Sequence record: MH359124
Strand: one strand, 5' to 3'
DNA length: 64,000 nt
Origin: Escherichia phage SF
Shown: piece by piece, positions 12,672 through 49,595 of the stretch
How the letters are laid out: every line of letters begins with the position of its first letter
Position numbering within the stretch: the first letter of the stretch is position 1
Notes under the pieces: generated by a model
The model's input: only the letters and a program-made list of their open reading frames with translations
Database searches by the model: none
Told to the model about the DNA's origin: nothing
Made by a program: the position numbers and the translations under genes

Positions 12672-12702
12672 GTTTACAACGTATTTGGTATGTGATACTA
12701 TA
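12672..12702 (+). promoter_or_regulatory. T4-type early promoter (GTTTAC -35, TACTAT -10) for ORF 12732
   Basis: tGTTTACaacgtatttggtatgtgaTACTATag; downstream leader almost identical to 49557..49595. Confidence 0.6.
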
Positions 12703-12731
12703 GACTTATCAACTACAGAGGAGTAAACAAA

Positions 12732-13001
12732 ATGACTAAAGCACGTTTCTTACGAGATACTTTAAAAGTTCTGGAAGCTGAAGCAGTTAAGTTAGTAGAA
12801 AAATATGGTGCAAAAGTTAATGGTAATGCCTTCAACAAAGTATGGATGAAAGTTGATTCTGAAGCTCGAGCTAAAGGTTATTGGGCCACTGATAAACTTG
12901 CGTCATTCAAAAACAAAGACGGTTCTCCGGCATATGTCCAAGAAGGTATGCCTAATTGGCAAAATATTTTGAAAACTTACATCGAAATTGCACAGAAATA
13001 A
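12732..13001 (+). CDS. hypothetical Lys-rich 89-aa protein driven by an early promoter, antisense to the gp24/gp23 block
   Basis: RBS GAGGAG 8 nt upstream of ATG; early-promoter-like GTTTAC...TACTAT upstream; hairpin terminator downstream; no recognisable domain. Confidence 0.6.
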   Translation: MTKARFLRDTLKVLEAEAVKLVEKYGAKVNGNAFNKVWMKVDSEARAKGYWATDKLASFKNKDGSPAYVQEGMPNWQNILKTYIEIAQK

Positions 13002-13011
13002 AACCAAAAAT

Positions 13012-13029
13012 GGGAGACCGAAGTCTCCC
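13012..13029. terminator. terminator hairpin GGGAGAC-cgaa-GTCTCCC between ORF 12732 and gp23 3' end
   Basis: Perfect 7-bp stem; identical 18-mer recurs at 32353..32370. Confidence 0.55.
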
Positions 13030-13053
13030 AAAATAAGATTTAATCAATTAAGA

Positions 13054-14622
13054 TTAGATGCCTTTTACATATACACGGCGGAAGTAAGCGTTCTTACCAA
13101 GGCTGTTCAGGATAGACGGCATACCGGACTGGATGCGAGCACCTGGAGCCTGCAGGGAACTTTCAGCAAACGGGTTAACACCGATACCGTAACGAGTTTT
13201 AAAGCCCATTACCGGCTGGAAGTTCTTAGGATCGGAACCACGCAGTGGGGTAAGTGCAACGTAAGGAGCATAGTAAATACCTGCATCCATTTCGTTAGCA
13301 CCTTTGTAACCAACGGTGAAGTAATCCTGTTTAGCATACTGGTCGATGTATACGCGGTATTTACCACCAAGTACACCGGCAAATACAGACTTAGTAGTGT
13401 CGGTATTAAAACCAGAAGCCAGACCCTGTGCAGCATAAGAAATACCAGTATCAACTGAAGCCAGTACGTTAACTACGTTACGGGAAGCGATAATGAAGTT
13501 ACCTTCACCACGACCGGTTTGACGAGCAATTTCAACTGCTTCTTTATCAATCTGGAACAACAGAGCTTTAAAGCTTTCACCGGCCCAACGAGCACCACGG
13601 ATATCAATCGGGTCCTGGAAGTCAAATACGCCAGCTTTAGAACCAACGATATTAGTCATACCAGATTTACCAACCTGAGCGGAATAGTTAATCCAGTCAA
13701 CAACTTCACGGTTGATTTCCAGCATAATTTCAGTAGCAAGAATACCACTCAGTTCAGCATCAGCATCCATACCGTGTACTGCACGGAGGTCTTGTGCCAA
13801 TTCGATAGAGTAAGCTGCTTTCAGCTGACGAGATTTAGCTTCAATAACTTGTTTGTCGATACGGAAGCCCATTTCGTTCCACGGGTTGTCGGTAGAACCA
13901 TTGAAGCCTTCCTGAAGTTCAGCGATAGAAGTAGCCATACCTTCAGCGATTTCTACCAGTACACCAGCTTCCATTTGTTTCTTAATTTCAGCATCTAATT
14001 TAGCTGCATCGGTAGCACTAGCATCGATTGTTACTACAGCGGAAGCTTGCAGATACACAGTACCAGTTTCCTGGAAGAAGTGAGTATAGATATCACCTAC
14101 AACGGTTTGTGTGCTAGCAGCCAGAGCTGGGAATTTCTTAGCAGCACCCTGACCAGAGAACATCGCGTCTGGAGCATACATCGGATGGAAAGCTTCTTTA
14201 GCGCCAGCAGCGATAGGGTCTTTACCGTATACTGCACGGAGAGCAAATACCTGACCGGTAGGGCTGCTCATAGGCTGAACACCGCAAATATCAAAAGCGA
14301 TCAGATTAGGAATAGCACGACGAACCATACCCATAACGGCTGGCCCAATCTGGGTTACTGCACCAGAGGTTTGACCTGCTGCGATGTTCTGAGCATTATA
14401 ACCGTGGTCACCACCAATTTCAGCTTCGGTCAAGAAAGAACCAAATGCCTGAGCGATTTTCTCGTCTTTATATTCAGGGGATACTTCGAAATCTTTTTCC
14501 TGGTTTTCGAAGATTTTAGCGATAATAGCCTGCTTGCTATTAGCGATTTCTGGCAGGCCTTCACCTTCCAGCAGTTCTTTCCATTTGTCTACGAGCTGAG
14601 CTTTAGTTTTGATAGTAGTCAT
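13054..14622 (-). CDS. 23: gp23 major capsid protein
   Basis: 522-aa ORF beginning MTTIKTKAQLVDKWKELLEGEGLPEIANSKQAIIAKIFENQEKDF, near-identical to T4 gp23 (521 aa). Confidence 0.97.
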   Translation of the reverse strand: MTTIKTKAQLVDKWKELLEGEGLPEIANSKQAIIAKIFENQEKDFEVSPEYKDEKIAQAFGSFLTEAEIGGDHGYNAQNIAAGQTSGAVTQIGPAVMGMVRRAIPNLIAFDICGVQPMSSPTGQVFALRAVYGKDPIAAGAKEAFHPMYAPDAMFSGQGAAKKFPALAASTQTVVGDIYTHFFQETGTVYLQASAVVTIDASATDAAKLDAEIKKQMEAGVLVEIAEGMATSIAELQEGFNGSTDNPWNEMGFRIDKQVIEAKSRQLKAAYSIELAQDLRAVHGMDADAELSGILATEIMLEINREVVDWINYSAQVGKSGMTNIVGSKAGVFDFQDPIDIRGARWAGESFKALLFQIDKEAVEIARQTGRGEGNFIIASRNVVNVLASVDTGISYAAQGLASGFNTDTTKSVFAGVLGGKYRVYIDQYAKQDYFTVGYKGANEMDAGIYYAPYVALTPLRGSDPKNFQPVMGFKTRYGIGVNPFAESSLQAPGARIQSGMPSILNSLGKNAYFRRVYVKGI

Positions 14623-14639
14623 TTGTGTTAACCTTTAAA

Positions 14640-15452
14640 TTAGAAACGAGATGCGACTTTCGCATATAAACTTACATTAGAATTCTGTTCTACCTGAGTT
14701 GTGGTAGTGTCAACTGCTTCGGCAACAAAATTAAGACCGGCAGCGTCATTGTCAACTGTATTTATACTTTCGGTAATAGCGGCTTCTTCTTTAGTAGAAC
14801 CTTTAACCATTTCTACAATAGCAGTTAACTTAGTACCAAATGCGTCAGAATAATCCATACCTTCAACCAGGCCAATAACTTTTTCTTTCTGAGATTCAGT
14901 CAGGTCTTTCACGCTTTCATTAATAGCGGTTTCACGCTGAACGTAATTGATATATGCATCACGTTTGGTAACTTCTTCGAACAAACGAGCGGTTTCTTCT
15001 TTATGTTCGGCCAGCTCTTCTTCCATTTCTGCTACAACATCTACAGATTCTTCTGGAACAACAACGTTATGTTCAACAAACAGTTCTTTCAGACCACCAA
15101 GCATGGATTCGAACAAATCAGCTTTAATGCCTTTATCAACTGCGATTTGGTTTTCTGCGAGCCATTCTTTTGCAAGATGGTCTAGGAATTTAGAAGCTTG
15201 TTCAGCCAATTTTTTATCAGCTTTCTCTTCAGCATCTTCTTTAGCCTTTTCAACTTCTTCTTCGGCTTTTTCGGCGATGGCTTTGATATGAGATTCAGCC
15301 AGTTTGACTGCTTCCTGCTTAACGGTGGCTTCGAATACAGTGCTGAAATTAGCTTTAACGTCCGGAGACAGTTCTACTGATTCGAAAACACTATTAAGAG
15401 CAACTGAAGTCTCGATATTCTGAGCTTCTTTCAAAAGTTGTTCTTTGATCAT
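14640..15452 (-). CDS. 22: gp22 prohead core scaffold protein
   Basis: 270-aa highly acidic coiled-coil ORF between gp21 and gp23. Confidence 0.9.
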   Translation of the reverse strand: MIKEQLLKEAQNIETSVALNSVFESVELSPDVKANFSTVFEATVKQEAVKLAESHIKAIAEKAEEEVEKAKEDAEEKADKKLAEQASKFLDHLAKEWLAENQIAVDKGIKADLFESMLGGLKELFVEHNVVVPEESVDVVAEMEEELAEHKEETARLFEEVTKRDAYINYVQRETAINESVKDLTESQKEKVIGLVEGMDYSDAFGTKLTAIVEMVKGSTKEEAAITESINTVDNDAAGLNFVAEAVDTTTTQVEQNSNVSLYAKVASRF

Positions 15453-15485
15453 TTTAGTGTCCTGTGGTTTAGATTACATTATTAT

Positions 15486-16127
15486 TTATAATGCTTTTAA
15501 ACTCTCTGCGAGAGCTTTAAATGCTTCATCAGCACTGTTTTTGGTGATTTCCACCGAATTTTCTGATTCTGATATTTGTTTAGGAGTAACCCAAGCATCT
15601 GGAGCAGAAGGTCCCCATACGGCATCTACGCCGACGGTTAATTTAAATCCTTCGTTCACGATACGGTACCCTTTATTGGTGTCGGTTAAAGAACCAAGAC
15701 CACGAGAGGAAACACCTGGAATCCAACCAGCTCGTATATTAGCAGCTAATTTATCGCCGGGACCATGGTCGCCTTCAATAATTCTAGCACGTCCATATAC
15801 ATCGTTTCCTTTCCACCACATATCTTCAATAATGATAGCGGCTTGCATAGGGTCAACATTTGCACGAGGTGGATGGTTTAATTCTCCAAGGGCTTGTTTG
15901 GTTACGACTTGTTCTTTAATATAGTCGCTTACCGCTTTTTCCAAAACGCGTTTAGGATATAAACGTTTATTTCGGTTAACAACCTCTGCTTGAAGAAAAA
16001 TACCTTCTATATAAAGCCCTGGTTTTAAGCCAGAATCTTTTCCATCATGAGATTCCAACATTGGAACGCCATCAATAATCTCACCTGGTTGACCCCAAGT
16101 TTCAATAAGTAACTCGGGTTTATTCAT
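15486..16127 (-). CDS. 21: gp21 prohead core protease
   Basis: 213-aa ORF, size and position match T4 gp21. Confidence 0.9.
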   Translation of the reverse strand: MNKPELLIETWGQPGEIIDGVPMLESHDGKDSGLKPGLYIEGIFLQAEVVNRNKRLYPKRVLEKAVSDYIKEQVVTKQALGELNHPPRANVDPMQAAIIIEDMWWKGNDVYGRARIIEGDHGPGDKLAANIRAGWIPGVSSRGLGSLTDTNKGYRIVNEGFKLTVGVDAVWGPSAPDAWVTPKQISESENSVEITKNSADEAFKALAESLKAL

Positions 16128-16552
16128 TAGCTTAATCCTAATGCTTTACGACGTTTAAGAGCTTTTTTACGCTTACGCAAGCCTTTAACTTGGCCTGAAG
16201 GGTTAGCTTTTTTAGCTTTAACGACCTTACGAGCGATTTGTCTACGTTTTGCTTTAGAAAGACCGGTTGTTTGGAACGCGTTACGTTCACGAGTTTTACG
16301 GTCTTTAGTGCGGGTGACTTCACCGCGAGAAGAAACATGTTTAACGATAAACTCATTTAACTGTTCTTCATTAATAATGGAAGCCATTGCAACAGCTAAA
16401 TCCGTTTCAGTTTCAAGCATGTTCTCGATAATAGTATTTATATCGTCAATATCGAGAGCAGAAGACAATGCATCGATTCGGCCCTGTGCTTCAGGAATAA
16501 GTGCTTCGACATTTTCGAGTACCAATTCATAAGATTCAGGGATAAGATACAT
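16127..16552 (-). CDS. 68: gp68 prohead core protein
   Basis: 141-aa ORF with basic C-terminus, coupled to gp21 and gp67. Confidence 0.8.
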
Positions 16553-16782
16553 TATTCATCGTCCTCATCATCTTCGTCTTCGTCGTCATCGCCTTCATCG
16601 GCGTCGTCTTCCGAAGCTTTCTTTTCTTCTTCAGGTTCTTCGCCTTCAATCAAAAATTGAGAAGCGATTTCTGCTTTGCGTGCTTCAATCAAACGAACCG
16701 TTTTTTCTGCCATTGCACTTTCAAAAAACTTTCGAGTAGCAACGAGGTCGTTTGATTTAATAGCTTGAATTAAATCGTCCAT
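16552..16782 (-). CDS. 67: gp67 prohead core protein
   Basis: 76-aa ORF with poly-acidic C-terminus, coupled to gp20. Confidence 0.8.
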
Positions 16783-18353
16783 TAAAAATCCTCTTGTTCT
16801 TGGTCGGGGTCTTGGAAACGAGCCTCTTTCGACTCTTCTTCAATTTGCTTAGCCTCTTGTTCAATTTCCTCGTCAGACATCTGAAGAATATCTTTCATAG
16901 CTGTTCTGTGAGAAATATATTTACCAATAAATGGTTCGGCCATCTGAAGCATATTAATGCGACGCTCCAGAATCTCAGCATCCTTTAATTCCGAGAAATA
17001 ACTATCCCGATGAAATTTTATCTTAATATTATTTATTTCATCATTCCACTCATCTTCTGTAATAATTCCTTTAAGAATTAAATTAGTTTTAAGCGGGTCT
17101 AGGAATATCTCTTCAAATTTATGTTGCAGCTCACGAATAAATTTACCAAATGACAATTCATCTCGTGTAATAGAAGTACCAGCATCAAACTGTATACCAC
17201 CTTGGTCACTTGGAATACGGGTAATAGGAATACGTAAAGCCATATAAAGCGCATTACGGAACCAACGTACATCTTCCATATTTCCAGTATTATCTGCACC
17301 TGGTAATGTGTCAACTTCTGTTACTGCTTTACCATCACGTCGTTGTAACCAATAATCTTCGGTCATCGACATAATATGCTGCTGGTTTTTAATCTTGCCT
17401 GTAGTAGCATCATATGCAATACGGTTTTTCATCGTATTCATAACATGTTGCATATGTTCTGCTGCTTTTCTTGAAGGCATATTACCTGTATCAACGTACC
17501 ATACACGACGATCGGGAGCACGAGTAATACGATAAATTACAACAGCATCTTCAAGAAGTTTTAATTGGTTCGCTGGCTTAATAGCCCGATGCAAATAACC
17601 GATTATATTTTTACCACAACAATCAACTAAACCAGAATGGGCATAAACAATCGCGGCTTTAGGGATTTTTATTTTTGTGCCAGCTTCATATATACGACCG
17701 TCACAAGCATAAGATTCGTGTGATGTGTCATAAATGAAATATTCTTTATAACCCTTGACTATTTTAACACCGGCTTCAGTGGTTGTAATAACTTCACGGA
17801 CATATTGAACTTGACGTGGGTCTAAACGACGAAGCTCTTTAATACCTTCTTTAGGGCGTTTAGGGTCAATAATTTTATGGAAGAAAATTCGAGAATCCAC
17901 ATACCAACGTCTAAAATGATCTGAACCTTTACGTTGGAAAGATAAATGATTTAACACTTCATTAAATTCATCCAACATCATTGATTTGATATTTGGACTA
18001 AATTTTGTGTTGTCTAAATTTATAGAAACGACTTCTGTATCATCTTCATACACGATAGCATCAGAAACTATTTCAGAGACCGCGTTATCCACTTCATAGT
18101 TCGTCATCAAATTTCGATACGTATCGATTAATTCACGGGTTGATTTGAGCCCTGGTTCTTGACTACCGAACATTCTCTGAAACATAGCATTATATGTTTG
18201 CTGTGCTTCATTTTCAGATACTTCGTATTCTTTAGCGCCGTCGTCTAATTTTGGTGAGGTGATCGATTCTAAATTTTCTTTTTCTTGGTCTTTGTAATCA
18301 CGTTCGTCCATTTTTGCCCATGGAGCAAACAAACTTAAGATATTAAATTTCAT
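16782..18353 (-). CDS. 20: gp20 portal vertex protein
   Basis: 523-aa ORF (T4 gp20 is 524 aa); late promoter upstream. Confidence 0.95.
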
Positions 18354-18381
18354 TGTATTCTCCGAATGGGAATTATAGTTA

Positions 18382-18389
18382 TATTTATA
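18382..18389 (-). promoter_or_regulatory. late promoter TATAAATA for gp20
   Basis: TATTTATA within the repeated motif TAGTTATATTTATA, 29 nt upstream of gp20. Confidence 0.7.
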
Positions 18390-18437
18390 TGGACTTCTCC
18401 GTCATCACGGGAAGCTGGGGATTTCTCCCCAACCAGA

Positions 18438-18929
18438 TTATTCCCACCAATCAAGAGCAAGAGTTACTTCGAACGTTTCAATCTCGTTATTGCTGTCCCA
18501 GTCAAGAGATACTTCACCAACGTTAGTAGGCCACAAGCCAACAATTTCAACTTCTTTAGTGACCGTTTTAGCATCACGAGCAAATTGGCGAACGATAGCA
18601 GTCTTTTTATATTCAGCAGGTTTACCACCGGTAATTTCATTACCTTGTCCTGCTGCAATACCTTGCCAATCAACAAATTTCTGACGAATGCTATGAGCAT
18701 CATCGTTCATTACTGTAATAGTCCAATCATCGAATGTACGATCACCGGCCACATTAATTTTACGGTTCATATAAGAAACAGGAACCTTTTCAACGATCGC
18801 AGCAGGAAGAGCCGTAGCACGACACTGGAAGCTAAAGTTTTGCCCAAGATAAGAGATTTCTACTTCGAACAGGTTAGGGCGAGCGAAATCACCTGATTCG
18901 AAGGCACGAGTTACGTCATCTACAAACAT
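18438..18929 (-). CDS. 19: gp19 tail tube protein
   Basis: 163-aa ORF (T4 gp19 is 163 aa) beginning MFVDDVTRAFESGDFARPNLF. Confidence 0.92.
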   Translation of the reverse strand: MFVDDVTRAFESGDFARPNLFEVEISYLGQNFSFQCRATALPAAIVEKVPVSYMNRKINVAGDRTFDDWTITVMNDDAHSIRQKFVDWQGIAAGQGNEITGGKPAEYKKTAIVRQFARDAKTVTKEVEIVGLWPTNVGEVSLDWDSNNEIETFEVTLALDWWE

Positions 18930-19001
18930 ATTAGCCTCTGTAGTAATATGAGCTTAGGATTAACCAGATGCCCATAGAATTAATTTTAAACGATATAGTT
19001 A

Positions 19002-19009
19002 TATTTATA
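19002..19009 (-). promoter_or_regulatory. late promoter TATAAATA for gp19
   Basis: Same TAGTTATATTTATA motif upstream of gp19. Confidence 0.65.
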
Positions 19010-19041
19010 TGGGCTACCGAAATAGCCCATCAGGCGTCTTA

Positions 19042-32345: not shown

Positions 32346-32352
32346 CACGAAA

Positions 32353-32370
32353 GGGAGACCGAAGTCTCCC
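32353..32370 (-). terminator. hairpin GGGAGAC-cgaa-GTCTCCC downstream of gp8
   Basis: Identical to the hairpin at 13012..13029. Confidence 0.5.
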
Positions 32371-32374
32371 TAAA

Positions 32375-33379
32375 TTAGAACATAAACAAAATATTGATCT
32401 CTTCGGTTTGGTCCATTGCCATAATAATAGGTGGACGGTTTTCCATATAAATCATTTCACCAGAATGACGCTGTAAATCTCTGGGGTCATAATAATCCTT
32501 TTCAGCCTTTATATTAGGGTCATTAGGACGGAGTTTAGCTTCCAAGGGGTTTGTGATAATAGAAATTTGTCTAAATCCTTTATTACCAGGCAGTGCTGCA
32601 TTAGGGAAATAAACTGAGTCTAAATAGGCTTTAAAACGAATTATGTTTGCTTTAACTCTATACACAAGGCCAAAATCATCTTGTTGCCAGGTTAGATTGT
32701 TTTCATATCCCCAACGAGCAGGGTCTTCTTTAACTTCTTCCGGCCATGGAACGACTATATATTCATTAGTACATCGGTTTATAGACACATCAGGTGGAAT
32801 CTCATAAAGATACTCCCATATATATCCGTCACCAACTTCGATAATCCCTTCAGCATCTCCACGGCCTTCAGGAGGGGTTAAAGACCTAACAGACGGAGTC
32901 CATTTACCACCTAATTTAAGACATTCTTCTTTGTTGTCGAGAGACTCAATAGAACACATCCCAACATCAGGAACATCTACGCAACGGTATACTAACCATC
33001 CGGCCCCGACTTCAGTGGCATTATATGGGGCTGTATTACATACGACTATATCATTTATTTTGAATGTATAAGGGTCTGGATAACGAATATCTCCCCAGTC
33101 ACGTCTAGGAATAACCGAGTCTAACATAGATGGGATAACTTTAACTAAACCCATCATGTTAGTCCACATATCTGTTACACCTAAAACCGAGTCTGTTGGA
33201 TACGGTGGGGCGAAGCCCACCTCATTTTCATTAGCAGCCCATGGTTCAGACCGACCAAACGTTATAAAGATGGTGTTTTTATTATCACCATCACCTATTG
33301 AATTGTAGAAATTCAACATTTTTTCAGTTCTAAATTTTGAAGTAACTATCGCACGATAGACAACACTTGAATCATTCAT
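32375..33379 (-). CDS. 8: gp8 baseplate wedge subunit
   Basis: 334-aa ORF (T4 gp8 is 334 aa). Confidence 0.9.
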   Translation of the reverse strand: MNDSSVVYRAIVTSKFRTEKMLNFYNSIGDGDNKNTIFITFGRSEPWAANENEVGFAPPYPTDSVLGVTDMWTNMMGLVKVIPSMLDSVIPRRDWGDIRYPDPYTFKINDIVVCNTAPYNATEVGAGWLVYRCVDVPDVGMCSIESLDNKEECLKLGGKWTPSVRSLTPPEGRGDAEGIIEVGDGYIWEYLYEIPPDVSINRCTNEYIVVPWPEEVKEDPARWGYENNLTWQQDDFGLVYRVKANIIRFKAYLDSVYFPNAALPGNKGFRQISIITNPLEAKLRPNDPNIKAEKDYYDPRDLQRHSGEMIYMENRPPIIMAMDQTEEINILFMF

Positions 33380-41596: not shown

Positions 41597-41619
41597 TATA
41601 AATAATAATACTATTTATA
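41597..41619. promoter_or_regulatory. divergent late promoters for gp4 (+, 41597..41604) and gp53 (-, 41612..41619)
   Basis: ggTATAAATAataatacTATTTATAagg in the 61-bp gp53/gp4 divergent spacer. Confidence 0.7.
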
Positions 41620-41630
41620 AGGAGGACAAC

Positions 41631-42080
41631 ATGGCCTACTCTGGTAAATGGGTCCCAAAAAATTTAAAAAAATACCGTGGAGACCATACCAAAATAACGT
41701 ATCGTTCAAACTGGGAAAAATTCTTTTTCGAATGGTTGGATAAAAATCCAGAAATTATTGCATGGGGTAGTGAAACAGCAGTAATTCCATATTTTTGTAA
41801 TGCTGAAGGTAAGAAACGTCGATACTATATGGACATATGGATGAAAGATGCATCAGGTCAAGAGTTCTTTGTAGAAATAAAACCAAAGAAAGAAACTCAG
41901 CCGCCTATTAAGCCTGTAAATCTTACGACCGCAGCAAAGAAACGTTATATGAACGAGATCTACGTGTGGTCTGTGAACTGTGATAAATGGAAAGCTGCTT
42001 CTGCTGTCGCAGAAAAGAGAAATATAAAATTTCGAGTTCTAACCGAAGATGGACTTAGGAAACTCGGATACAAGGGGTAA
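41631..42080 (+). CDS. 4: gp4 head completion protein
   Basis: ATG 41631 with RBS AAGGAGG; [43 protein letters not shown] matches T4 gp4. Confidence 0.92.
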
Positions 42081-42082
42081 TT

Positions 42083-42904
42083 ATGAGCATATTCCAAATT
42101 ATATCTGAAGGCGTACAAGCCCCTAAGATTGCTCAGTCTATGAATGAAAGAAAATGGATTGAGATAGGATTAGAATACAAGAAAGCTAAAGAGAAAGGAA
42201 TCACTGCAAAAGCATTTGCAGAATCAAAAGGAATAAAATACTCGTCGTTTACATCTGCAATGTCTAGATATGCATCATCTATTAAGACTGCACAGAAAAT
42301 TGAAACGCTTGAATCTAAACCTAAAAATAAACTCAATAAGCAAGAACGTCAACTTCTGATGATAAACTCGTTTCGCAGTTCAATACGAGAAAAGATTAGA
42401 AATGAAGGCGCAGCAGTAAACAACAAATCATCTAAGTGGTTTGTTGAAACAATTAAGAAAAGTGTAAAAGGTCATAAAGTAGTCAAGCCTACGCCAGGCA
42501 AAATTTATACTTACGTGTATGATGCTAAACATAAAGATACTCTGCCATATTGGGACCGATATCCTTTGATTATTTATTTAGGATTAGGTAAACATAATTT
42601 GATGTATGGGCTAAACTTGCACTATATCCCACCTAAAGCACGTCAACAGTTTCTTGAAGAATTGCTGAAGCAATATGCTAGCACAACTACTATTACTAAT
42701 AACACAAAGTTGAAGATAGACTGGAGCAAGGTGAAAGGATTTCAAGGTGCTGACAAAATGATTAAAGCATACCTGCCAGGCCACATTAGAGGAACAATAA
42801 CAGAAATAGCTCCTAAAGACTGGGCTAACATAATCATGTTACCTACTCAGCAGTTTATGTCAAAAGGAAAACGTTTCTCTGCGAATACTGTTTGGAAATC
42901 TTAA
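42083..42904 (+). CDS. 2: gp2 DNA end protector protein
   Basis: 273-aa ORF (T4 gp2 is 274 aa), synteny 4-2-3-1. Confidence 0.88.
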
Positions 42905-43006
42905 TTCTATTCTCTTCCGTTCTTCTGATATTCTGTTGAACCAGATTAATGGAAGAGACCTAAAACCATTATACTGCATTTTTATTAAAGCGTTTTTGAG
43001 GTGCTT

Positions 43007-43591
43007 ATGACTCGTCCAGCGAGACAGATTTTTAACCAAACAAATATAACAAACTTTGTTGTGGATATCCCGGATAGTACACGAACTTCAGGTTTTGTGC
43101 TCAATGCCCAAACGGCTCCACTACCAGGTGTGAGAATTCCTGTTGTTGAAACTGTGACTGGCACAATGGGGTTAGGACGTGCAATGCGTGCAGGCACCAC
43201 ATTTGAATATGACCCTTTTGTTGTACGATTTATAGTTGATGAAGACATGACGTCCTGGATGAACATGTATAAATGGATGCTCAGCACTAATAACTATATA
43301 ACCGGGCATAATACTGCACACTCCGATGGTCCTGAGTTTGTTACTTTGCACATTTTAAACAACAATAAGACAGAAGTAGTTTTGACGGCAAATTTCTATA
43401 AACCATGGATTTCCGATTTGAGTGAAATTGAATTTAGTTACACTGAAGACTCTGACCCTGCCGTTACGTGCGTAGCAACTATTCACTACGCGTATATGAC
43501 GATAGAAAAGGATGGCGAAGTCATTGTATCTCAACAACCACGTCAAGCTGCCGAATCTAAATCCATTTCTAGACACCCTTCCTTGCGCTAA
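43007..43591 (+). CDS. 3: gp3 tail completion / sheath stabiliser
   Basis: ATG 43007 (MTRPARQIFNQTNITNFVVDIPDS) with RBS GAGGTG; the track start at 43001 is GTG. Confidence 0.85.
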   Translation: MTRPARQIFNQTNITNFVVDIPDSTRTSGFVLNAQTAPLPGVRIPVVETVTGTMGLGRAMRAGTTFEYDPFVVRFIVDEDMTSWMNMYKWMLSTNNYITGHNTAHSDGPEFVTLHILNNNKTEVVLTANFYKPWISDLSEIEFSYTEDSDPAVTCVATIHYAYMTIEKDGEVIVSQQPRQAAESKSISRHPSLR

Positions 43592-43645
43592 TCGCTTCTA
43601 GCTCCATATGTTATAATCGTTCATAAATTATATGAGGAAAATCCT

Positions 43646-44380
43646 ATGGAGCTAATCTTTTTAAGCGGCATCAAACGTAGTGGTAAAGACACTACTGCTG
43701 ATTACATCAATTCAAACTTTAAATCCATAAAATATCAATTAGCATATCCAATTAAAGACGCTCTAGCAATAGCTTGGGAACGTAAACACGCCGAAAACCC
43801 AGATGTATTCACTGAGTTGAAATATGAATACTTTGAAGGCATTGGATACGACCGTGAAACGCCATTAAATCTCAATAAATTGGATGTTATTGAATTATTG
43901 GAAGAAACGCTAATTTATTTACAACGACAATACCTGCCAATTAATGGTGTTAACGTATTATCATCACTAGAAGGTGGATACTCATATCTAGATATTAAAC
44001 CGTACGAAGCCCTGCGTGAAGCTATAAATAATATCAACGACACGTGGTCGATCCGCCGTCTTATGCAAGCCCTCGGTACGGATGTTGTCGTTAATTTATT
44101 TGACCGTATGTATTGGGTTAAGCTTTTTGCATTAAACTATATGGATTATATTGGAAGTGATTTCGATTACTACGTTGTGACCGATACACGCCAAGTCCAT
44201 GAAATGGAAACCGCTAGAGCGATGGGTGCTACAGTTATTCATGTGGTTCGCTCTGGTACGGAATCCACTGATAAACATATTACAGAAGCTGGGTTGCCTA
44301 TTGAAGAAGGCGACTTAGTTATTACAAACGACGGCTCTTTAGAAGAGCTTTATTCTAAAATTGAAAAAATCTTAAGGTAA
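43646..44380 (+). CDS. 1: gp1 deoxynucleoside monophosphate kinase
   Basis: 244-aa ORF with P-loop LSGIKRSGKDTTAD; matches T4 gp1. Confidence 0.92.
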   Translation: MELIFLSGIKRSGKDTTADYINSNFKSIKYQLAYPIKDALAIAWERKHAENPDVFTELKYEYFEGIGYDRETPLNLNKLDVIELLEETLIYLQRQYLPINGVNVLSSLEGGYSYLDIKPYEALREAINNINDTWSIRRLMQALGTDVVVNLFDRMYWVKLFALNYMDYIGSDFDYYVVTDTRQVHEMETARAMGATVIHVVRSGTESTDKHITEAGLPIEEGDLVITNDGSLEELYSKIEKILR

Positions 44381-44384
44381 TAAA

Positions 44385-45070
<686 letters not shown>

Positions 45071-45082
45071 TTTTCAAAAACA

Positions 45083-45118
45083 GTTTACATAAGGATGATG
45101 GCGTGTTACTATCATCCT
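45083..45118 (+). promoter_or_regulatory. early promoter with stem-loop (PeSL-like) for the ipI-locus gene
   Basis: GTTTACA, then inverted repeat AGGATGAT...ATCATCCT enclosing TACTAT. Confidence 0.6.
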
Positions 45119-45146
45119 ATCAAATAAACAACCTCAAGGAAATAAA

Positions 45147-45458
45147 ATGAAAACCTATCAAGAGTTTATCGCTGAAGCTACTAAAGCCGATAAAAATTTT
45201 ATTATTAACACCACCGGTCCGTTAGATGATGAATACGCTAATGCTATTATTAAGTCAATTTCTAATCAAGGCGTTGAAGTAACAAATTTCGAATATAAGA
45301 AAAATGATACTTATATGATAATTAGTATCAAAAAAGGTTCAAAAGCCAAAATTAAATCCGCATTTGGTGTTATGCGAGTTGACCAAATCGATAACCACGA
45401 TTTTTCACAAACAGGGGCCAAACGCCAAAATACCATTTCTTCTAAAGGCATAAAATAA
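45147..45458 (+). CDS. internal protein (ipI locus) with capsid-targeting leader
   Basis: N-terminus MKTYQEFIAEA, the T4 internal-protein capsid targeting sequence; early promoter upstream; position adjacent to 57B. Confidence 0.8.
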   Translation: MKTYQEFIAEATKADKNFIINTTGPLDDEYANAIIKSISNQGVEVTNFEYKKNDTYMIISIKKGSKAKIKSAFGVMRVDQIDNHDFSQTGAKRQNTISSKGIK

Positions 45459-45494
45459 TTTACAACACGATAGGACTATGTTATAATAGTCCTA
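45459..45494 (+). promoter_or_regulatory. early promoter TTTACA-17-TATAAT embedded in a stem-loop (PeSL)
   Basis: aTTTACAacacgaTAGGACTAtgtTATAATAGTCCTAtc: -10 lies in the loop of an 8-bp inverted repeat. Confidence 0.7.
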
Positions 45495-45519
45495 TCAAAA
45501 CAACCAAATGGAACCTAAA

Positions 45520-45783
45520 ATGAAAACTTTCAACGAATTCATCTCAGAATCGTCTGGTGTGAAAATTAACAAAGCGGTCAATCAGGTTATTGCTGATATT
45601 CTTAATTTGTATAACATTGACTTAACTCCGCATATCACGCTTGGTAACAAACGAAACTTTTTCATATTTGACACATCCGAACTTGATGAAAATCAGTTCA
45701 ATAACATTCAACGTTTTGCGAATGATAAAGGTCTTCGACACGAGCCTGGCGGCTATAAAAAATACGCAATATATTTGAAATAA
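45520..45783 (+). CDS. internal-protein-like (CTS variant MKTFNEFISE)
   Basis: Start at ATG 45520; CTS-like N-terminus; PeSL-type promoter-stem-loop upstream. Confidence 0.65.
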   Translation: MKTFNEFISESSGVKINKAVNQVIADILNLYNIDLTPHITLGNKRNFFIFDTSELDENQFNNIQRFANDKGLRHEPGGYKKYAIYLK

Positions 45784-45852
45784 AGGTATACAAGCCTATA
45801 GGGATATGTTATAGTAGTCCTATCAAAACAAATGAGTAAATGGAGAAATAAA

Positions 45853-46038
45853 ATGAAACGCGCTGAACTGATTCGTAATGTTGCTATAGTAATTGCTTCA
45901 ATGGCTTTTAGTTTTTCGATGTTTGTAGGATTCATTTGTGGACTACTGACAACAACTGAAAACTCTATCTCATTGGTAGTAGCATTTCTAATCGGCTTAA
46001 TCGCTATCGTTATGGATAAAATTGCAAAAGGTGAGTAA
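45853..46038 (+). CDS. small membrane protein (2 predicted TM helices)
   Basis: Start at ATG 45853 with RBS GGAG; hydrophobic segments VAIVIASMAFSFSMFVGFICGLL and LVVAFLIGLIAIV. Confidence 0.5.
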   Translation: MKRAELIRNVAIVIASMAFSFSMFVGFICGLLTTTENSISLVVAFLIGLIAIVMDKIAKGE

Positions 46039-46039
46039 A

Positions 46040-46402
46040 ATGAAATATCATGTATATGCGGATTTTGAAGCAAATCCTTCTAAAGACCATGATTGTCGTT
46101 TGATACGCAGACCATTTGATTCAGCAGCTCAAGCATGGGCTTGGATTAAAACTTGTACTCCTTCTTACACTTTCTTTGAAGTGGTAGATGATAACGGTGT
46201 TCTACATCCAGAACCTACAGAAACTATTAATTTCCTTCTGTTTGCTGGTTACGACTGTTATCCTCTTGGCGGTATTGACGATCTTGTTGCTACAGGAAAA
46301 ACTGTTGAAGCTCTTCGTGAAATCTATAAAAATGCTGAAGAAAATTTTGACTGGTACCAGATTGTCAGTGCACATACTTTTGAAGTGGTGGAACACTCAT
46401 GA
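46040..46402 (+). CDS. hypothetical protein
   Basis: ATG 46040 with RBS GGTGAG; 120 aa; no recognisable motif. Confidence 0.6.
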   Translation: MKYHVYADFEANPSKDHDCRLIRRPFDSAAQAWAWIKTCTPSYTFFEVVDDNGVLHPEPTETINFLLFAGYDCYPLGGIDDLVATGKTVEALREIYKNAEENFDWYQIVSAHTFEVVEHS

Positions 46403-46689
46403 TTCTTTATGCTAAAGTAAAATCTGTCGAGAATGGATATGAAAGCGATCAACGTGCAGCTAAAGCACTAGTCGATGACTATGGTATTTTGACTAATTTT
46501 GAAGTTGAAAAGGTTTACATCGACCGTTCGTCTTCACAGGTTAAATTGCTCTGTGAAGATGATAAATTTAACACAGTTAACTTTGATTTCTTTATTGAAA
46601 CAGAAAAAGGCCCTCTTGAATATGATATTTTCAAGAATCCTTTGAAATTACGTTGCATTGAATATAATTACATTAATATGGTACGGTGA
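46399..46689 (+). CDS. hypothetical protein
   Basis: 96-aa ORF coupled to the upstream gene (ATGA overlap). Confidence 0.6.
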   Translation: MILYAKVKSVENGYESDQRAAKALVDDYGILTNFEVEKVYIDRSSSQVKLLCEDDKFNTVNFDFFIETEKGPLEYDIFKNPLKLRCIEYNYINMVR

Positions 46690-46693
46690 TTAA

Positions 46694-47209
46694 ATGAATA
46701 TTTGTTTAGGCAGTACAATTCCTAAAGGTTACGTAATTGATGTCACTACCTATGAAAGTGATGGCGACAATTATAAAACCAAAACATTGTTTGAAGTGGA
46801 AGAGCATGAGCTCCAACAGTTTAAATATCTCTTGAAGAAATTTAAGAGCCGTCATTCTAGCACCAAAGCCGAACGTTATTGCGGTAATACACCATTCGGT
46901 CGTTGTTCGCTTATTATCTACGAATATCTGGTTGAAGGACTGTTCTCAGACCAACTCCAACCGGAATTTATTAAAAAGGTCTTTGGCATCGAAGTAGACC
47001 TTGGTGATAAATCTGAAGAAGACGAAGCCCGCGTATTCGACCTGTTCTTTGTGAAAGGCGGTGAGATATCTCAAGGACTTATTTATATTCTTGGCTATGC
47101 TTCTGAATACTATGATTACGATTTCTTGCGTGTAGTTGAACGTGTCGAATTTGCTTATATTGAAGAAGAAATCGTTTTGCCAACCGTTAAAATGATTGAT
47201 TTGCTTTAA
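46694..47209 (+). CDS. hypothetical protein
   Basis: 171-aa ORF, acidic; no recognisable motif. Confidence 0.6.
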   Translation: MNICLGSTIPKGYVIDVTTYESDGDNYKTKTLFEVEEHELQQFKYLLKKFKSRHSSTKAERYCGNTPFGRCSLIIYEYLVEGLFSDQLQPEFIKKVFGIEVDLGDKSEEDEARVFDLFFVKGGEISQGLIYILGYASEYYDYDFLRVVERVEFAYIEEEIVLPTVKMIDLL

Positions 47210-47288
47210 GAATTATGTGTTATTATTAATTCATACCATCTATTACCAAAGGTGCTCTAAAGTGCCTTTCATAATAGAAAGTTATTTA

Positions 47289-47362
47289 GGCCCTGTAGCT
47301 CAACGGTTAGCAGCAGTCCCCTCATAAGGGAAAGGTTACCAGTTCGAATCTGGTCTGGGTCA
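47289..47362 (+). tRNA. tRNA with anticodon CAT (Met/Ile2 type)
   Basis: Manual cloverleaf: acceptor GGCCCTG/CTGGGTC (one mismatch), D-arm GCTC-AACGGTTAG-CAGC, anticodon loop CTCATAA, T-arm ACCAG-TTCGAAT-CTGGT; 6 nt before the next tRNA. Stems are imperfect. Confidence 0.6.
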
Positions 47363-47368
47363 TATATT

Positions 47369-47445
<77 letters not shown>

Positions 47446-47463
47446 ACTTTAAGTGAGGAAAAT

Positions 47464-47808
47464 ATGAAAGGCAACATTTATCTGGTAGTTCATGATTTAA
47501 CGTTTTATTTTAACGAATATGATACAGTTATTTCTCATCGATTGATTAATTCGCTGTATCAGCATGCCGATTACATCTATGTTCAAAATGAATTTGGTCA
47601 TTGGAAGTTCATTAAAAATCGTTCTGGGTTAACTAGTTTTGAATACTTTGACCGTAAAGACCTTTTAAACGAAATCCCATTGCAACATCGGTTCCAGAAA
47701 CGTGAATCATTATATTATTGCCGCCATATACCAAACGCCGAATGTGTTAATGAAGCGATTAATCTATGGCGTCGGCGTCGAGAGCAAATTGATGATATGC
47801 CAAAATAA
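47464..47808 (+). CDS. hypothetical protein
   Basis: ATG 47464 with strong RBS GAGGAA; 114 aa; the track ORF start at 47416 lies inside tRNA-Arg. Confidence 0.6.
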   Translation: MKGNIYLVVHDLTFYFNEYDTVISHRLINSLYQHADYIYVQNEFGHWKFIKNRSGLTSFEYFDRKDLLNEIPLQHRFQKRESLYYCRHIPNAECVNEAINLWRRRREQIDDMPK

Positions 47809-47959
47809 GAAGCCGGGTCGCTACCGGTAAGTCGTCGGACTGATGTTCCCTGCGTAAGGACTGGTCTTAAATAAATCTTTATGATTTGTTAATATCCCCT
47901 TACATCACAGCAGAAACGGCGCACAGAATTATCGATTCGAGGAAATATCTTTGCCGTAA

Positions 47960-48150
47960 GCCGAGTAGCGTTTTTGACGGAACGTTCGGATATGGTCGAG
48001 ATATGGCCTTTTAAAAATATTGAGTAGCGTCAACTGCTTAATAACCGGGTTCGAATCCCGGCGTTTCGTACAAACACTTGCCTTAGCAGGTGGAACCCCG
48101 ACAAGGTTGCCGCAAGGCATAGCCCCTTCCGAAAGGTTGGGGCTTTTTGG
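47960..48150 (+). ncRNA. candidate small stable RNA with tRNA-like T-arm and terminator (possibly analogous to T4 rnaC/rnaD)
   Basis: 385-bp ORF-free stretch next to the tRNAs; tRNA-like T-arm CCGGG-TTCGAAT-CCCGG (48045..48061) and pairing 7-nt acceptor-like strands; GC hairpin plus T-run at 48121..48148. Boundaries approximate. Confidence 0.35.
48121..48148 (+). terminator. rho-independent terminator (AGCCCC...GGGGCT plus TTTTT)
   Basis: agccccttccgaaaggttggggcttttt at the end of the ORF-free RNA region. Confidence 0.65.
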
Positions 48151-48193
48151 CATAATAATAAATAGATAAGTTAATTAACTTAGGAAAAGCAAA

Positions 48194-48658
48194 ATGAAAT
48201 CATACGCCGAATTTTTGACTGAACAATCTAGTTCAGATGTAAAAGCCGCTGCGATTGCAGCAATTCAAGCAGGTAAATATTCTTACAAAGACGCCTCTGA
48301 TGAAGAACGTTTCCGTTTTATTAGAGATTTTAAAGCCGAAGGTTTTACTAATGCTAATACTGTTAGCCGAGTTTTTAAAAGCCTAGCTGCATCAGGTGAA
48401 TTGTTCCAGAAAGCTACAGGTAAAGCACCTGCGCCAAAAGCGGACCCTAAAGCCGCTCAAGAAAAAAATATCGCCAAAGGAATTATTTCTAAGTATGAAG
48501 CAATTCTTAAAGAGCTTTTAGTAATCAAAACAGAAGGCCAGAAACTGGCACGAGCACATAGCTTCAAAGATAATCCTCACGCTCATAGCCTTGAGTATGT
48601 TGAAGATATCCAAAAACTTATTAAAGACCGTATCTGGTCTGCTAAACAAATTAAATAA
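48194..48658 (+). CDS. internal-protein-like (CTS variant MKSYAEFLTE), 154 aa
   Basis: CTS-like N-terminus; flanked by near-identical terminator hairpins. Confidence 0.7.
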   Translation: MKSYAEFLTEQSSSDVKAAAIAAIQAGKYSYKDASDEERFRFIRDFKAEGFTNANTVSRVFKSLAASGELFQKATGKAPAPKADPKAAQEKNIAKGIISKYEAILKELLVIKTEGQKLARAHSFKDNPHAHSLEYVEDIQKLIKDRIWSAKQIK

Positions 48659-48664
48659 TAGAAT

Positions 48665-48691
48665 GCCCCTTCCTTACGGTTGGGGCTTTTT
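48665..48691 (+). terminator. rho-independent terminator after IP gene 48194, near-copy of 48121..48148
   Basis: gccccttccttacggttggggcttttt. Confidence 0.65.
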
Positions 48692-48829
48692 GGTATCTAG
48701 GCCTTTCCGGGAATCTCTAGGCATCATTTAGTTTATACCCTTTATAATAATATATTATCCTACCTTTTAATTGCCTCTCTCTGCCCTAGAATTCCCCGGA
48801 ACTTTTTAAAAATTTTTTTTCACAAAACT

Positions 48830-48859
48830 GTTTACATCCCTGTTCTTCCGTGGTACTAT
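48830..48859 (+). promoter_or_regulatory. early promoter GTTTACA...TACTAT
   Basis: ctGTTTACAtccctgttcttccgtggTACTATac upstream of ORF 48902. Confidence 0.55.
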
Positions 48860-48901
48860 ACAACTATCAACTACCGATACAGAAAAAACTTGGAGAATGA
48901 A

Positions 48902-49165
48902 ATGGATAATTACGGCGAACTGTTCAACTTCTTTATGAAATGTGTTCCAGAAGATTTCGGACGTACGGTGAATGATATTAAAGTTATCGGTCCTGAACAC
49001 CCTGTGTATGAAACCTATGCAGTAATGGGTAATGAAGACGGACAGTGGTATACAATTAAAGTTGTGATTAATATGTTCTCGGCCGAAGGCTACGCCAAAT
49101 CGTCTACCAAAGTTTACCATGATAACGATTTTGATGCGGAAGATTATTTCAATAATATGAAATAA
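48902..49165 (+). CDS. hypothetical protein
   Basis: ATG 48902 with RBS GGAG; early promoter at about 48830..48859. Confidence 0.55.
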   Translation: MDNYGELFNFFMKCVPEDFGRTVNDIKVIGPEHPVYETYAVMGNEDGQWYTIKVVINMFSAEGYAKSSTKVYHDNDFDAEDYFNNMK

Positions 49166-49223
49166 ATGTGTACATGGGCTCATGATTAAGATATTATGAG
49201 CCCTATTAATGAGAAAGAATGTT

Positions 49224-49529
49224 ATGAGTCTTTATACTGAACTGAATAAAAAATCTGAAGAATCTGCTGAAACTATTTTTAAAAACGTGCAAAAGCGTAT
49301 TTTAGAAAAGATGTATAACACTGCAGCTAAAGGTGAAAAATCTTGCCGGTTTCCGATGAGGTGTTCTTCTGATTTATGCGCAAATACTATTGAATGGCTG
49401 GAAAGTGAAGGTCTTACGGTAGAGAAAAACCCGGCGACTTCTATTGACAGTGAATCATATATTAGTATTTCTTGGGATAAACCACGTATTAATGAAGGAC
49501 ACTACAAGTTGTTGAGTTGGAAAAATTAA
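49224..49529 (+). CDS. hypothetical protein
   Basis: ATG 49224 with RBS GAGAAAG. Confidence 0.55.
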   Translation: MSLYTELNKKSEESAETIFKNVQKRILEKMYNTAAKGEKSCRFPMRCSSDLCANTIEWLESEGLTVEKNPATSIDSESYISISWDKPRINEGHYKLLSWKN

Positions 49530-49537
49530 AATAATGA

Positions 49538-49566
49538 TGTACAAGCACCAAAGATGGTGATACTAT
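49538..49566 (+). promoter_or_regulatory. early promoter for ORF 49596 (leader duplicated at 12690..12731)
   Basis: tgatactatagacttatcaactacagaggag shared with the 12732 upstream region; -35 is TGTACA here. Confidence 0.55.
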
Positions 49567-49595
49567 AGACTTATCAACTACAGAGGAGAAACAAA

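Follow-up and report, generated by a model that had tools for sequence, protein, structure and literature searches.

What brings nearly the same promoter and leader to two genes 37 kb apart? The question arises in the 64,000-nt stretch of Escherichia phage SF (record MH359124) analysed here, hereafter the window, which belongs to an RB69-like T-even phage (Mosigvirus). Within the window the 32-nt sequence GTGATACTATAGACTTATCAACTACAGAGGAG has exactly two occurrences, 12692-12723 and 49557-49588, each on the + strand. On its 3' side copy 1 continues with a T and AAACAAAATG, and copy 2 with AAACAAAATG without the T; the stretch common to both is 42 nt with this single indel and runs from the extended -10 element to the ATG (copy 1, 12692..12734; copy 2, 49557..49598). 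A sequence-only reading had pointed to this repeat, an identity of 30 nt or more ahead of two unrelated genes, and it is borne out, with coordinates correct to a few bases. The genes themselves are indeed dissimilar. The first encodes 89 aa (ORF89, 12732-13001) and belongs to phrog_6003; the second encodes 75 aa (49596-49823, + strand) and is a homolog of frd.3 (PF05798 Phage_FRD3, E = 5.4e-38; phrog_1764). Their BLASTP E value is 8.6 and, as far as sequence comparison goes, there is no detectable homology between them.

Both copies are predicted to be T4-type immediate-early promoters used with host sigma70. They carry the features of T4-type early promoters described by Nolan 2006 (PMC1524935), including a GTTTAC-like -35 element, a TAnnAT -10 with A at -11 and T at -7, a GT-rich/TG extended -10 and an A-rich UP-like region, and each is correctly oriented and directly precedes an ORF of the early-gene strand. 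Copy 1 reads TTTACA-17-TACTAT and copy 2 TGTACA-17-TACTAT, with TG before the -10 in both; the hexamers lie at 12696-12701 (extended as TG-n-TACTAT) and 49561-49566. Transcription would start at an A about 7 nt downstream of the -10, near 12708 and 49573, giving in each case an A-rich, unstructured leader of about 24 nt. The Shine-Dalgarno (SD) sequence GAGGAG (12718-12723 and 49583-49588) stands 7-8 nt 5' of the ATG, with TAAACAAA between them in copy 1 and AAACAAA in copy 2. The -35, the spacer and all further upstream sequence differ between the copies, and an internal patch alone is common to both. Specifically, the -35 elements GTTTACA (12672..12678, +) and TGTACA (49538..49543, +) are locus-specific and lie outside the repeat, the latter accompanying ORF145c in other genera, and the AT-rich upstream region is tatagattatttataaagatt in copy 1 and ggaaaaattaaaataatga in copy 2. 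The orthologous positions in RB69 correspond to the predicted early promoters Pe:109605 (copy 1) and Pe:72567 (copy 2) of Nolan 2006 (PMC1524935, Additional file 3), to which an HMM from the T4 early consensus gave scores of 29.9 and 33.

Judged from alignments with relatives, copy 2 came to stand before frd.3 only secondarily, when 213 bp with ORF145c were deleted. Locus 2 belongs to the e.8-e.6/tRNA hyperplastic region and is found in three architectures. In most relatives, among them RB69, phi25-307, HX01 and LF82-9, the cassette here precedes ORF145c, not frd.3, and this ORF145c-bound form is 47/47 identical to copy 1. Compared with the same four phages the window lacks 213 bp, comprising ORF145c and frd.3's own promoter; in LF82-9 frd.3 has the native leader AGAGGAGAAACAAAATGGCT. 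The distance between the repeats is 213 bp. Copy 2 is a chimera, with promoter and leader of ORF145c as far as AGAGGAG (49582..49588, +) and then the native frd.3 leader AAACAAAATGGCT, and the T is missing because the crossover between the two leaders would have fallen inside this common SD. About 10% of relatives share the loss of ORF145c with the window; among the 60 best records 13 have the fused cassette-frd.3 form, and the remainder span 313 bp in two pieces. In five Tequatroviruses without frd.3 at this place the -35/spacer TGTACAAGCACCAAGGATGGTG goes with ORF145c, which argues that the promoter was originally that of ORF145c. The reverse polarity, with ORF145c inserted into a fused ancestor and not deleted, is formally possible. 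The same locus has an ORF146c module (49209..49529, +), which is served by a stem-loop promoter of its own (the -10 lies at 49192) and is missing in LF82-9 and PST; on either side of the module the -35 element is directly repeated, as AAATAAATGTGTACA and AAATAATGATGTACA, and these repeats form the junction of the indel. Also encoded in the window's hyperplastic region are IP-like genes whose starts, MKTYQEF..., are conserved.

Locus 1 is part of the virion module, where ORF89 (allele A, 12732..13001, +) is an early-strand gene between late genes 24 and 23. The upstream region of copy 1 doubles as the gene 24 late promoter on the opposite strand: the motif TATAAATA (12658..12665, -), identified with the late-promoter consensus given in Nolan 2006 (PMC1524935), stands back to back with the -35 element of copy 1, and the gp24 ORF spans 11347-12630 (-). 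Between ORF89 and gene 23 is a GC-rich hairpin, GGGAGAC-CGAA-GTCTCCC (13011..13030), that has a terminator score on the - strand only (for gene 23); a near-identical second copy of it is present at 32350-32379. In Mosigvirus, Dhakavirus, Gaprivervirus and one Tequatrovirus, genes of the ORF89 family are found at the g24/g23 site and have a -35 of their own, and the -35 context of copy 1 is also found in JS10, VR7 and G28. Given its presence there in four genera, the family is an old resident of this site and not a recent arrival. ORF89 has two alleles, about 32% identical. In LF82-2 the Mosigvirus promoter extends as far as CAGAGGAG and is followed by a JS10/G28-type leader and allele B, which adjoins a homing endonuclease; the junction of the allele swap is the SD. 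At this locus RB69 differs by three substitutions in its copy and has a broken ORF (ORF189c/188c).

How, then, might ORF145c have come to share a leader with ORF89? Tequatrovirus ORF145c has the same -35/spacer and coding sequence as its Mosigvirus counterpart, but a different leader that is 6 nt longer. In a comparison of LF82-9 with PST, identity is 95.6% over the upstream 45 nt and 91.7% over the coding sequence, whereas the stretch from the -10 to the ATG is only 76% identical with a 6-nt length difference; it is precisely this divergent stretch that agrees completely with locus 1. Because the leader differs while its flanks agree, the -10-to-ATG patch appears to have been replaced in Mosigvirus, and this 40-46-nt patch points to ectopic gene conversion. 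Alternatively, a non-coding leader may just change more quickly than the sequence on either side of it. Outgroup signals for the direction of conversion are mixed: TACTAT, the SD GAGGAG and the distance from SD to -10 resemble locus-1 outgroups, and AGACTT and TACAGA resemble locus-2 outgroups.

Overall, we consider it probable that the near-identity arose by recombination at short regulatory motifs, in two steps, and not from a jumping element. In the first step a gene-conversion patch, from about -15 through codon 2, would have homogenised the promoter/leader stretches of ORF89 (g24/g23) and ORF145c (e.8-e.6 hyperplastic region) in an ancestor of RB69-like phages, leaving 47 identical nt. 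In the second, in a sub-lineage including the window, the SD and leader before ORF145c and before frd.3, which form direct repeats of AGAGGAG(T)AAACAAAATG, would have been the site of a crossover that removed 213 bp and fused the ORF145c promoter to frd.3, with the missing T as its footprint. ORF89 and frd.3 would now share a strong early promoter and the leader from which they are translated.

The sequence-only reading had fitted the repeat to the promoter-early-stem-loop (PeSL) model of a mobile regulatory cassette, which in canonical form would mean that a promoter-plus-gene unit, for example a mini-circle, had passed between g24/g23 and the hyperplastic region. We regard this as unlikely, even with a setting that suits it. 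Both copies have a sigma70-like promoter with spacing of about 17 nt, AT-rich sequence upstream and an SD and start codon on the 3' side, before small ORFs of unknown function; the surroundings are plastic, with indels among close relatives, locus 2 being hyperplastic and locus 1 beside a two-allele gene; and the topology of the ORF145c loss, of which the deletion product only is seen, is exactly that of mini-circle excision between tandem elements. The -10-in-loop stem-loops noticed elsewhere in the window are also real, and neighbouring promoters (z -2.7 to -5.8) are true stem-loop PeSL-like elements. The closest third relative of the cassette, the promoter and leader of regB (60507..60560, +; 40-41/47 positions; gene product matched to REGB_T4, E = 3.5e-53), has an 11-bp stem, TTCTCCTCTAG / CTAGAGGAGAA, that pairs the spacer with the SD. 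Weaker members of this promoter sub-family lie at 56970..57009 (+), where a 10-bp stem pairs the spacer with the SD, and at 48850..48889 (+), upstream of e.8. The same fold test, however, finds no stable stem-loop in either copy of the cassette (RNA z = -0.03 and -0.09; DNA z = -0.10 and +0.30), the best inverted repeats being a 5-bp TGATA/TATCA stem and, in copy 1 only, an AT-rich pairing of 8 bp that encloses a 45-nt loop, so the defining feature of a PeSL, a stable stem-loop in or beside the promoter that could serve as terminator or attenuator, is absent.

Movement of a unit also fits poorly with distribution: among the 135 phage records and the 2 complete metagenomic genomes the cassette has no locus besides these two. 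When flanking genes are compared, only the -10-to-ATG patch is common, the ORF89 family with its -35 context has long been at g24/g23, the tie to frd.3 is secondary, and the cassette has not moved together with a gene. What survives of the model is its account of indel and replacement junctions inside the promoter and leader motifs of close relatives. It is therefore partly supported: the cassette is neither a canonical PeSL nor a self-mobile gene-plus-promoter unit, and its shuffling behaviour fits.

The leader also suggests how the two genes may be regulated. RegB has the strong-site consensus GG*AGRAYARAA; its sites are degenerate, secondary structure shields them from being cut, and regB SDs were reported cleaved in the T4-related phages tested (PMC3014915). 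Matches to GGAGRAYARAA are only partial, at 8/11 in copy 1, 9/11 in copy 2 and 8/11 in the window's own regB leader. In both copies GGAG falls in the SD, within an intergenic translation-initiation region of a predicted early transcript, and the leaders show no significant structure (z = +0.37 and +0.22), with GGAG unpaired and an A-rich 3' flank. Since these properties resemble those of the regB leader, the cassette leader is a plausible candidate RegB target, and the mRNAs of ORF89 and frd.3 are probably switched off early by RegB cleavage. As a second alternative, functional selection on a specific operator (for RegB/S1, RegA or another early post-transcriptional regulator), whose exact sequence both genes would require, could account for the repeat, with recombination incidental. 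The resemblance to the regB leader would agree with this, as would the conservation of the 32-mer, 100% in 132/135 records against 2-5% difference in flanking DNA. We nevertheless judge it quite improbable, because convergence is not expected to yield 47/47 identity that covers positions variable in all other early promoters of the window, Tequatrovirus ORF145c functions with a different leader, point variants of the cassette are tolerated in HX01, LF82-9, CCU7 and RB69, and RegB sites are degenerate.

Chance resemblance, in which two sites happen to fit the T4-type consensus for early promoter and SD well, has a very small probability. TG-n-TA..AT, an ATCAA close to the start and SDs of GGAG type are indeed common to all early promoters here, and several other pairs have common exact words of 17-22 nt. 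Among the 105 pairs formed by the window's 15 credible early promoters, however, copies 1 and 2 are the most similar (45/47 positions; mean 30.3, sd 4.1; next best 41), 3.6 sd over the mean, with a longest exact word of 32 nt versus 22 nt in the next pair. In 100 dinucleotide-preserving shuffles there were zero matches to GTGATACTATAGACTTATCAACTACAGAGGAG, even at <=3 mismatches. The identity also runs into non-consensus positions and, between copy 1 and RB69 ORF145c, into the second and third codons; together these results effectively refute chance. An assembly or sequencing artefact duplicating a short segment, as the suspicious tandem triplication at the locus in the related record OLB35 (flagged UNVERIFIED) might suggest, has a negligible probability and is refuted by >70 genomes, sequenced independently of one another, and the two complete metagenomic genomes, in which both copies recur with the same surroundings.

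Recombination at short regulatory motifs, the reading we prefer, makes this a well-resolved natural case of T-even phages rewiring small accessory genes. Four independent junctions were identified (the SD accounts for two and the -35 for one, and the fourth is a patch from the -10 to the ATG), indicating that recombination at 7-17-nt regulatory motifs can delete, swap and re-promote genes with expressibility kept. More speculatively, the working units of T-even module exchange might be the core motifs (-35, extended -10 and SD GGAG), with stem-loops unneeded, and conversion might spread a -10-to-SD segment giving immediate-early expression and RegB-sensitive shut-off; we hold this as a tentative suggestion. 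If true, unrelated genes, including one antisense in the capsid gene cluster, would have been recruited into one regulatory class. Through the four junctions the PeSL idea now covers RB69-like phages and promoters that lack a stem-loop, and a testable link to RegB control is offered. For annotation, the case is a warning that near-identical Mosigvirus genomes may differ in the gene behind a given promoter.

Overall, the case is clear but ordinary, an instance of the module shuffling already known from T4-type phages, and no new kind of element. Shuffling at the T4 internal-protein (IP) locus was reportedly described by Repoila et al. in 1994 (cited in PMC4122927). There too, small non-essential early genes are exchanged between T-evens via short conserved sequences at gene boundaries, but the genes are others, and the conserved sequence is coding (an N-terminal targeting peptide) as well as regulatory. 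RB69 has the same two promoter sites (Nolan 2006), but its locus-2 copy drives ORF145c and not frd.3; the available portions of that paper (PMC1524935) do not mention the near-identity of Pe:109605 and Pe:72567. With the regB leader and RegB sites (Uzan and Miller 2010, PMC3014915) the cassette shares the unpaired SD GGAG and A-rich 3' flank, but it lacks the 11-bp stem of the window's regB promoter. PeSLs are known in RB49/phi1 (Arbiol 2010, PMC2839356) and in PST/T4 and nt-1/KVP40 (Comeau 2014, PMC4122927), with a promoter consensus of TTTACW-N17-TAYWAT in those of PST/T4 type (PMC4122927); our literature search found no paper naming both PeSL and RB69. The cassette resembles them in its AT-rich region, early sigma70-type promoter, SD, start codon and small variable ORFs downstream, and in having indel or replacement junctions between close relatives inside the elements. 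The breakpoints here are at the SD, the -10/spacer and the -35, whereas the AT-rich region was proposed for RB49 ORF192 (PMC2839356, PMC4122927). A further difference is that one of the events here would be a short conversion-like patch between loci 37 kb apart, and not the excision or insertion of a cassette.

The exact 32-mer GTGATACTATAGACTTATCAACTACAGAGGAG occurs twice in the window, at 12692-12723 (copy 1) and 49557-49588 (copy 2), both on the + strand. In 100 dinucleotide-preserving shuffles no match to it was found, even with three mismatches allowed. After the 32-mer, copy 1 continues with T-AAACAAAATG and copy 2 with AAACAAAATG, giving 42 nt in common with one indel. Copy 1 precedes ORF89 (12732-13001, + strand; 89 aa; phrog_6003) and copy 2 precedes frd.3 (49596-49823, + strand; 75 aa; full-length match to Pfam Phage_FRD3, E = 5.4e-38). 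No homology between the two proteins was detectable by BLASTP (E = 8.6) or family searches; the sole Pfam match of ORF89, to DUF4859, fell under the gathering score and was given no weight. The claim of the sequence-only reading that a near-identical promoter and leader stands before two unrelated genes is borne out: the 32-nt identity holds, and the downstream ORFs show no detectable kinship.

When the window's 15 credible early promoters are compared pairwise (105 pairs), copies 1 and 2 rank first, with 45/47 positions identical against a mean of 30.3/47 (sd 4.1), and their longest exact word is 32 nt versus 22 in the next pair. Their likeness exceeds the promoter consensus, yet it stands at the end of a graded series. 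The cassette (the shared stretch from extended -10 to ATG) forms a sub-family with the promoters at 48854 and 56974 and above all with the one at 60524, and members of a second sub-family (45482, 45810, 52655, 53948) have common words of 17-22 nt.

As read from the sequence, the repeat spans an extended -10, the predicted start of transcription, a leader of ~24 nt, the SD GAGGAG, and the ATG. The -35 elements, GTTTACA at 12672-12678 (copy 1) and TGTACA at 49538-49543 (copy 2), both on the + strand, lie outside the repeat; each is followed by a 17-nt spacer and TG-n-TACTAT. This -35/spacer/-10 arrangement fits the T4/PST-type early consensus, TTTACW-N17-TAYWAT (PMC2839356, PMC4122927). The orthologous RB69 sites appear among the early promoters predicted by Nolan et al. 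2006, as Pe:109605 (score 29.9) and Pe:72567 (score 33) (PMC1524935). From spacing only, we infer transcription starts at the A at 12708 (copy 1) and the A at 49573 (copy 2). Transcription of ORF89 and frd.3 from a strong sigma70 promoter should begin as soon as the phage infects, and translation should proceed from an unstructured leader bearing a strong SD.

Copy 2 lies in the e.8-e.6 hyperplastic region, beside tRNA genes. In RB69, phi25-307, HX01, and LF82-9 the same cassette precedes ORF145c (54 aa, phrog_5461) and equals copy 1 of the window over 47 nt, a stretch that takes in the T and ATGACTA. In these four phages a separate promoter serves frd.3, which lies downstream of ORF145c; the native frd.3 leader in LF82-9 is AGAGGAGAAACAAAATGGCT. 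Copy 2 is therefore a chimera, composed of the ORF145c promoter and leader through AGAGGAG and then the frd.3 leader. Direct repeats AGAGGAG(T)AAACAAAATG are found 213 bp apart, and a crossover within AGAGGAG would lead to loss of ORF145c and of frd.3's own promoter. Such a crossover would also explain the (t/a) difference between the copies recorded in the sequence-only reading. Of the 60 best records, 13 show the fused cassette-frd.3 form, among them PhAPEC2, CCU7, ESh27, JQD51, and the NHEP phages, and the others have the extra 212-213 bp. Insertion of ORF145c is less likely than its deletion, because the -35/spacer TGTACAAGCACCAAGGATGGTG goes with ORF145c in five Tequatroviruses without frd.3 there. 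Following the deletion reading, frd.3 would be the present target of copy 2 as the result of a secondary event.

ORF145c itself is 96-98% identical at the protein level between Mosigvirus and Tequatroviruses T2, PST, RB5, and G28 (extracted loci L009 and L012-L015 versus L001). This identity is notably high across two genera and hints at recent inter-genus exchange. The last ORF145c codons (…ATTTACATCTAA or …GTTTACATCTAA) hold the -35 element of the promoter for the following gene (L001 3940-3965; L013 395-440).

The match between the two loci probably reflects a short patch of ectopic gene conversion between two already similar early promoters. In the Tequatroviruses PST, G28, teqhad, ZJUN4, and PhiZZ23, the -35/spacer and coding sequence of ORF145c are conserved, and the stretch from -10 to ATG is GTGTTATTATAGACTTATCAAAACAAATACAGAAACGGAGAAATAAATG, which exceeds its Mosigvirus counterpart by 6 nt. 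Between LF82-9 and PST, identity is 95.6% over the upstream 45 nt, 76% from -10 to ATG, and 91.7% in the coding sequence. The patch that diverges and the part identical to locus 1 (the ORF89 site) are one and the same, the signature expected of such conversion. At locus 1, the outgroups JS10 (Dhakavirus) and G28 (Tequatrovirus) have GTGTTACTATAGACCTATCAAAA(A)CATGAGGAGATTAAAAATG in the same -35 context, and VR7 (Gaprivervirus) keeps the -35 context with a different -10 and leader. The cassette has TACTAT, the SD GAGGAG, and the SD-to--10 distance in common with the locus-1 outgroups, and AGACTT and TACAGA in common with the locus-2 outgroups. Signals on the direction of conversion from JS10, VR7, and G28 at locus 1 and from PST, G28, teqhad, ZJUN4, and PhiZZ23 at locus 2 are mixed.

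Copy 1 is flanked by gene 24 (11347-12630, - strand) and gene 23 (13054-14622, - strand), where the window, which belongs to an RB69-like Mosigvirus, is 99% identical to Shigella phage phi25-307; the putative promoter of copy 1 drives the small ORF89 antisense to the capsid genes. We rejected the arrival of ORF89 together with its promoter: the g24/g23 site holds ORF89-family genes and their -35 context in four genera, and because both are resident there, the cassette was not carried in with a gene. The AT-rich 'UP' region of copy 1 probably doubles as a late promoter, because the gene 24 late-promoter motif TATAAATA (12658-12665, - strand) sits 6 nt from the early -35 on the opposite strand. 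This back-to-back layout is visible also in JS10, VR7, and G28. In RB69 (L011 3200-3640; NC_004928 109200-109640, reverse strand) the locus-1 cassette has three substitutions and ORF89 is broken into two small annotated ORFs, 189c and 188c, which points either to a dispensable gene in decay in that strain or to errors in the old sequence. A GC-rich hairpin, GGGAGACCGAAGTCTCCC, follows gene 23/ORF89 at 13009-13038 and recurs 19 kb away at 32350-32379 with 90% identity; terminator hairpins are therefore repeated modules too.

Further junctions fall at SD and -35 motifs. LF82-2 locus 1 has the exact Mosigvirus promoter through CAGAGGAG, then a leader of the JS10/G28 type, ATTAAAAATGAAC, and a divergent ORF89 allele (only ~32% protein identity) that is likewise near the JS10/G28 type. 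Directly downstream, a homing endonuclease gene is inserted before gene 23 (L007 701-1630), and the divergent allele may have been imported by homing-associated co-conversion. Mosigvirus genomes of the LF82 series carry this allele. At locus 2, the window has ORF146c, which is absent from LF82-9 and PST, where the ORF145c promoter directly follows e.8. This module, an ORF with its own stem-loop promoter, is bounded by the -35-region direct repeats AAATAAATGTGTACA and AAATAATGATGTACA (window 49130-49215 and 49495-49580, compared with L005 630-715 and L009 1095-1180). In this phage group, module boundaries thus fall again and again at SD, -10, and -35 motifs.

Across 135 GenBank phage records (212 places), the cassette occurs at these two loci only. 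An exact IMG/VR scan with a 28-nt core gave no match, and a metagenome scan turned up no further context: its only hits were two complete Mosigvirus genomes and a fragment, in which the cassette again sat at these loci. OLB35 (MH992122; L022 2900-3680, reverse strand) has three tandem cassettes with chimeric 146c, frd.3, and 145c fragments at locus 2; its first 50 kb has no further copy. This record is flagged UNVERIFIED, and the triplication, left out of evidence, may be real or may have arisen when a population mixed for the two locus-2 architectures was mis-assembled.

Apart from the two copies themselves, the promoter/leader most like the cassette, at 60524, drives regB (REGB_T4, E = 3.5e-53). 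RegB cuts GG^AG in SDs of early mRNAs, with strong sites GGAGRAYARAA, and regB SDs are cleaved in the T4-related phages tested (PMC3014915). Copy 1 matches this motif at 8/11 positions, copy 2 at 9/11, and the window's regB leader at 8/11. Given the resemblance to the regB leader and these partial matches, RegB-mediated early shut-off of cassette mRNAs is a reasonable inference. At regB (60507-61016; 152 aa), the promoter spacer and the SD form an 11-bp stem, TTCTCCTCTAG / CTAGAGGAGAA (RNA z = -4.05). The SD would be hidden in read-through transcripts and exposed in those from regB's own promoter, which lack the 5' arm. A 10-bp stem gives promoter 56974 the same spacer-SD pairing design. Six small ORFs (87-154 aa; + strand starts 45147, 45520, 48194, 56667, 57512, 58086) begin with an MKTYQEFI(A/T)E-like sequence, which resembles the capsid-targeting sequence of T4 internal proteins. 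DNA repeat families D4, D6, and D7 consist of the conserved 5' ends of these ORFs, which could be recombination sites too.

Promoter-early stem-loops (PeSLs) of T4-type phages comprise an AT-rich region, an early promoter, a stable stem-loop, and an SD with start codon, and go with indels in hyperplastic regions (PMC2839356, PMC4122927). The cassette has all of these features except the stem-loop: neither RNA or DNA folding nor a search for inverted repeats gave a significant structure in it. Specifically, RNA and DNA fold z-scores are -0.03 and -0.10 for copy 1 and -0.09 and +0.30 for copy 2. Elsewhere in the window they are -5.8 and -3.65 at promoter 45482 and -4.05 and -2.79 at 60524, with RNA values of -4.6 at 49192, -2.7 at 49847, and -3.3 at 56974. 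Copy 1 only has an 8-bp AT-rich inverted repeat between the -35 TTGTTTAC (12670-12677) and the SD-ATG spacer GTAAACAA (12723-12730); it has a 45-nt loop, needs the extra T, and is not energetically significant in folding. No paper linking PeSLs to RB69 was found in the library searched. The mobile PeSL cassette proposed earlier survives in part: small early genes are indeed shuffled by recombination at promoter/leader elements, but there is no stem-loop and no mobile unit of gene plus promoter, and the copy 2 target is secondary to a deletion. Phenomena of this class have been on record since 2010, and the prediction of both promoters dates from 2006. Because it lacks a stem-loop, did not travel with a gene, and occupies only two loci in the records scanned, the cassette is not a canonical PeSL; its shuffling behavior is PeSL-like.
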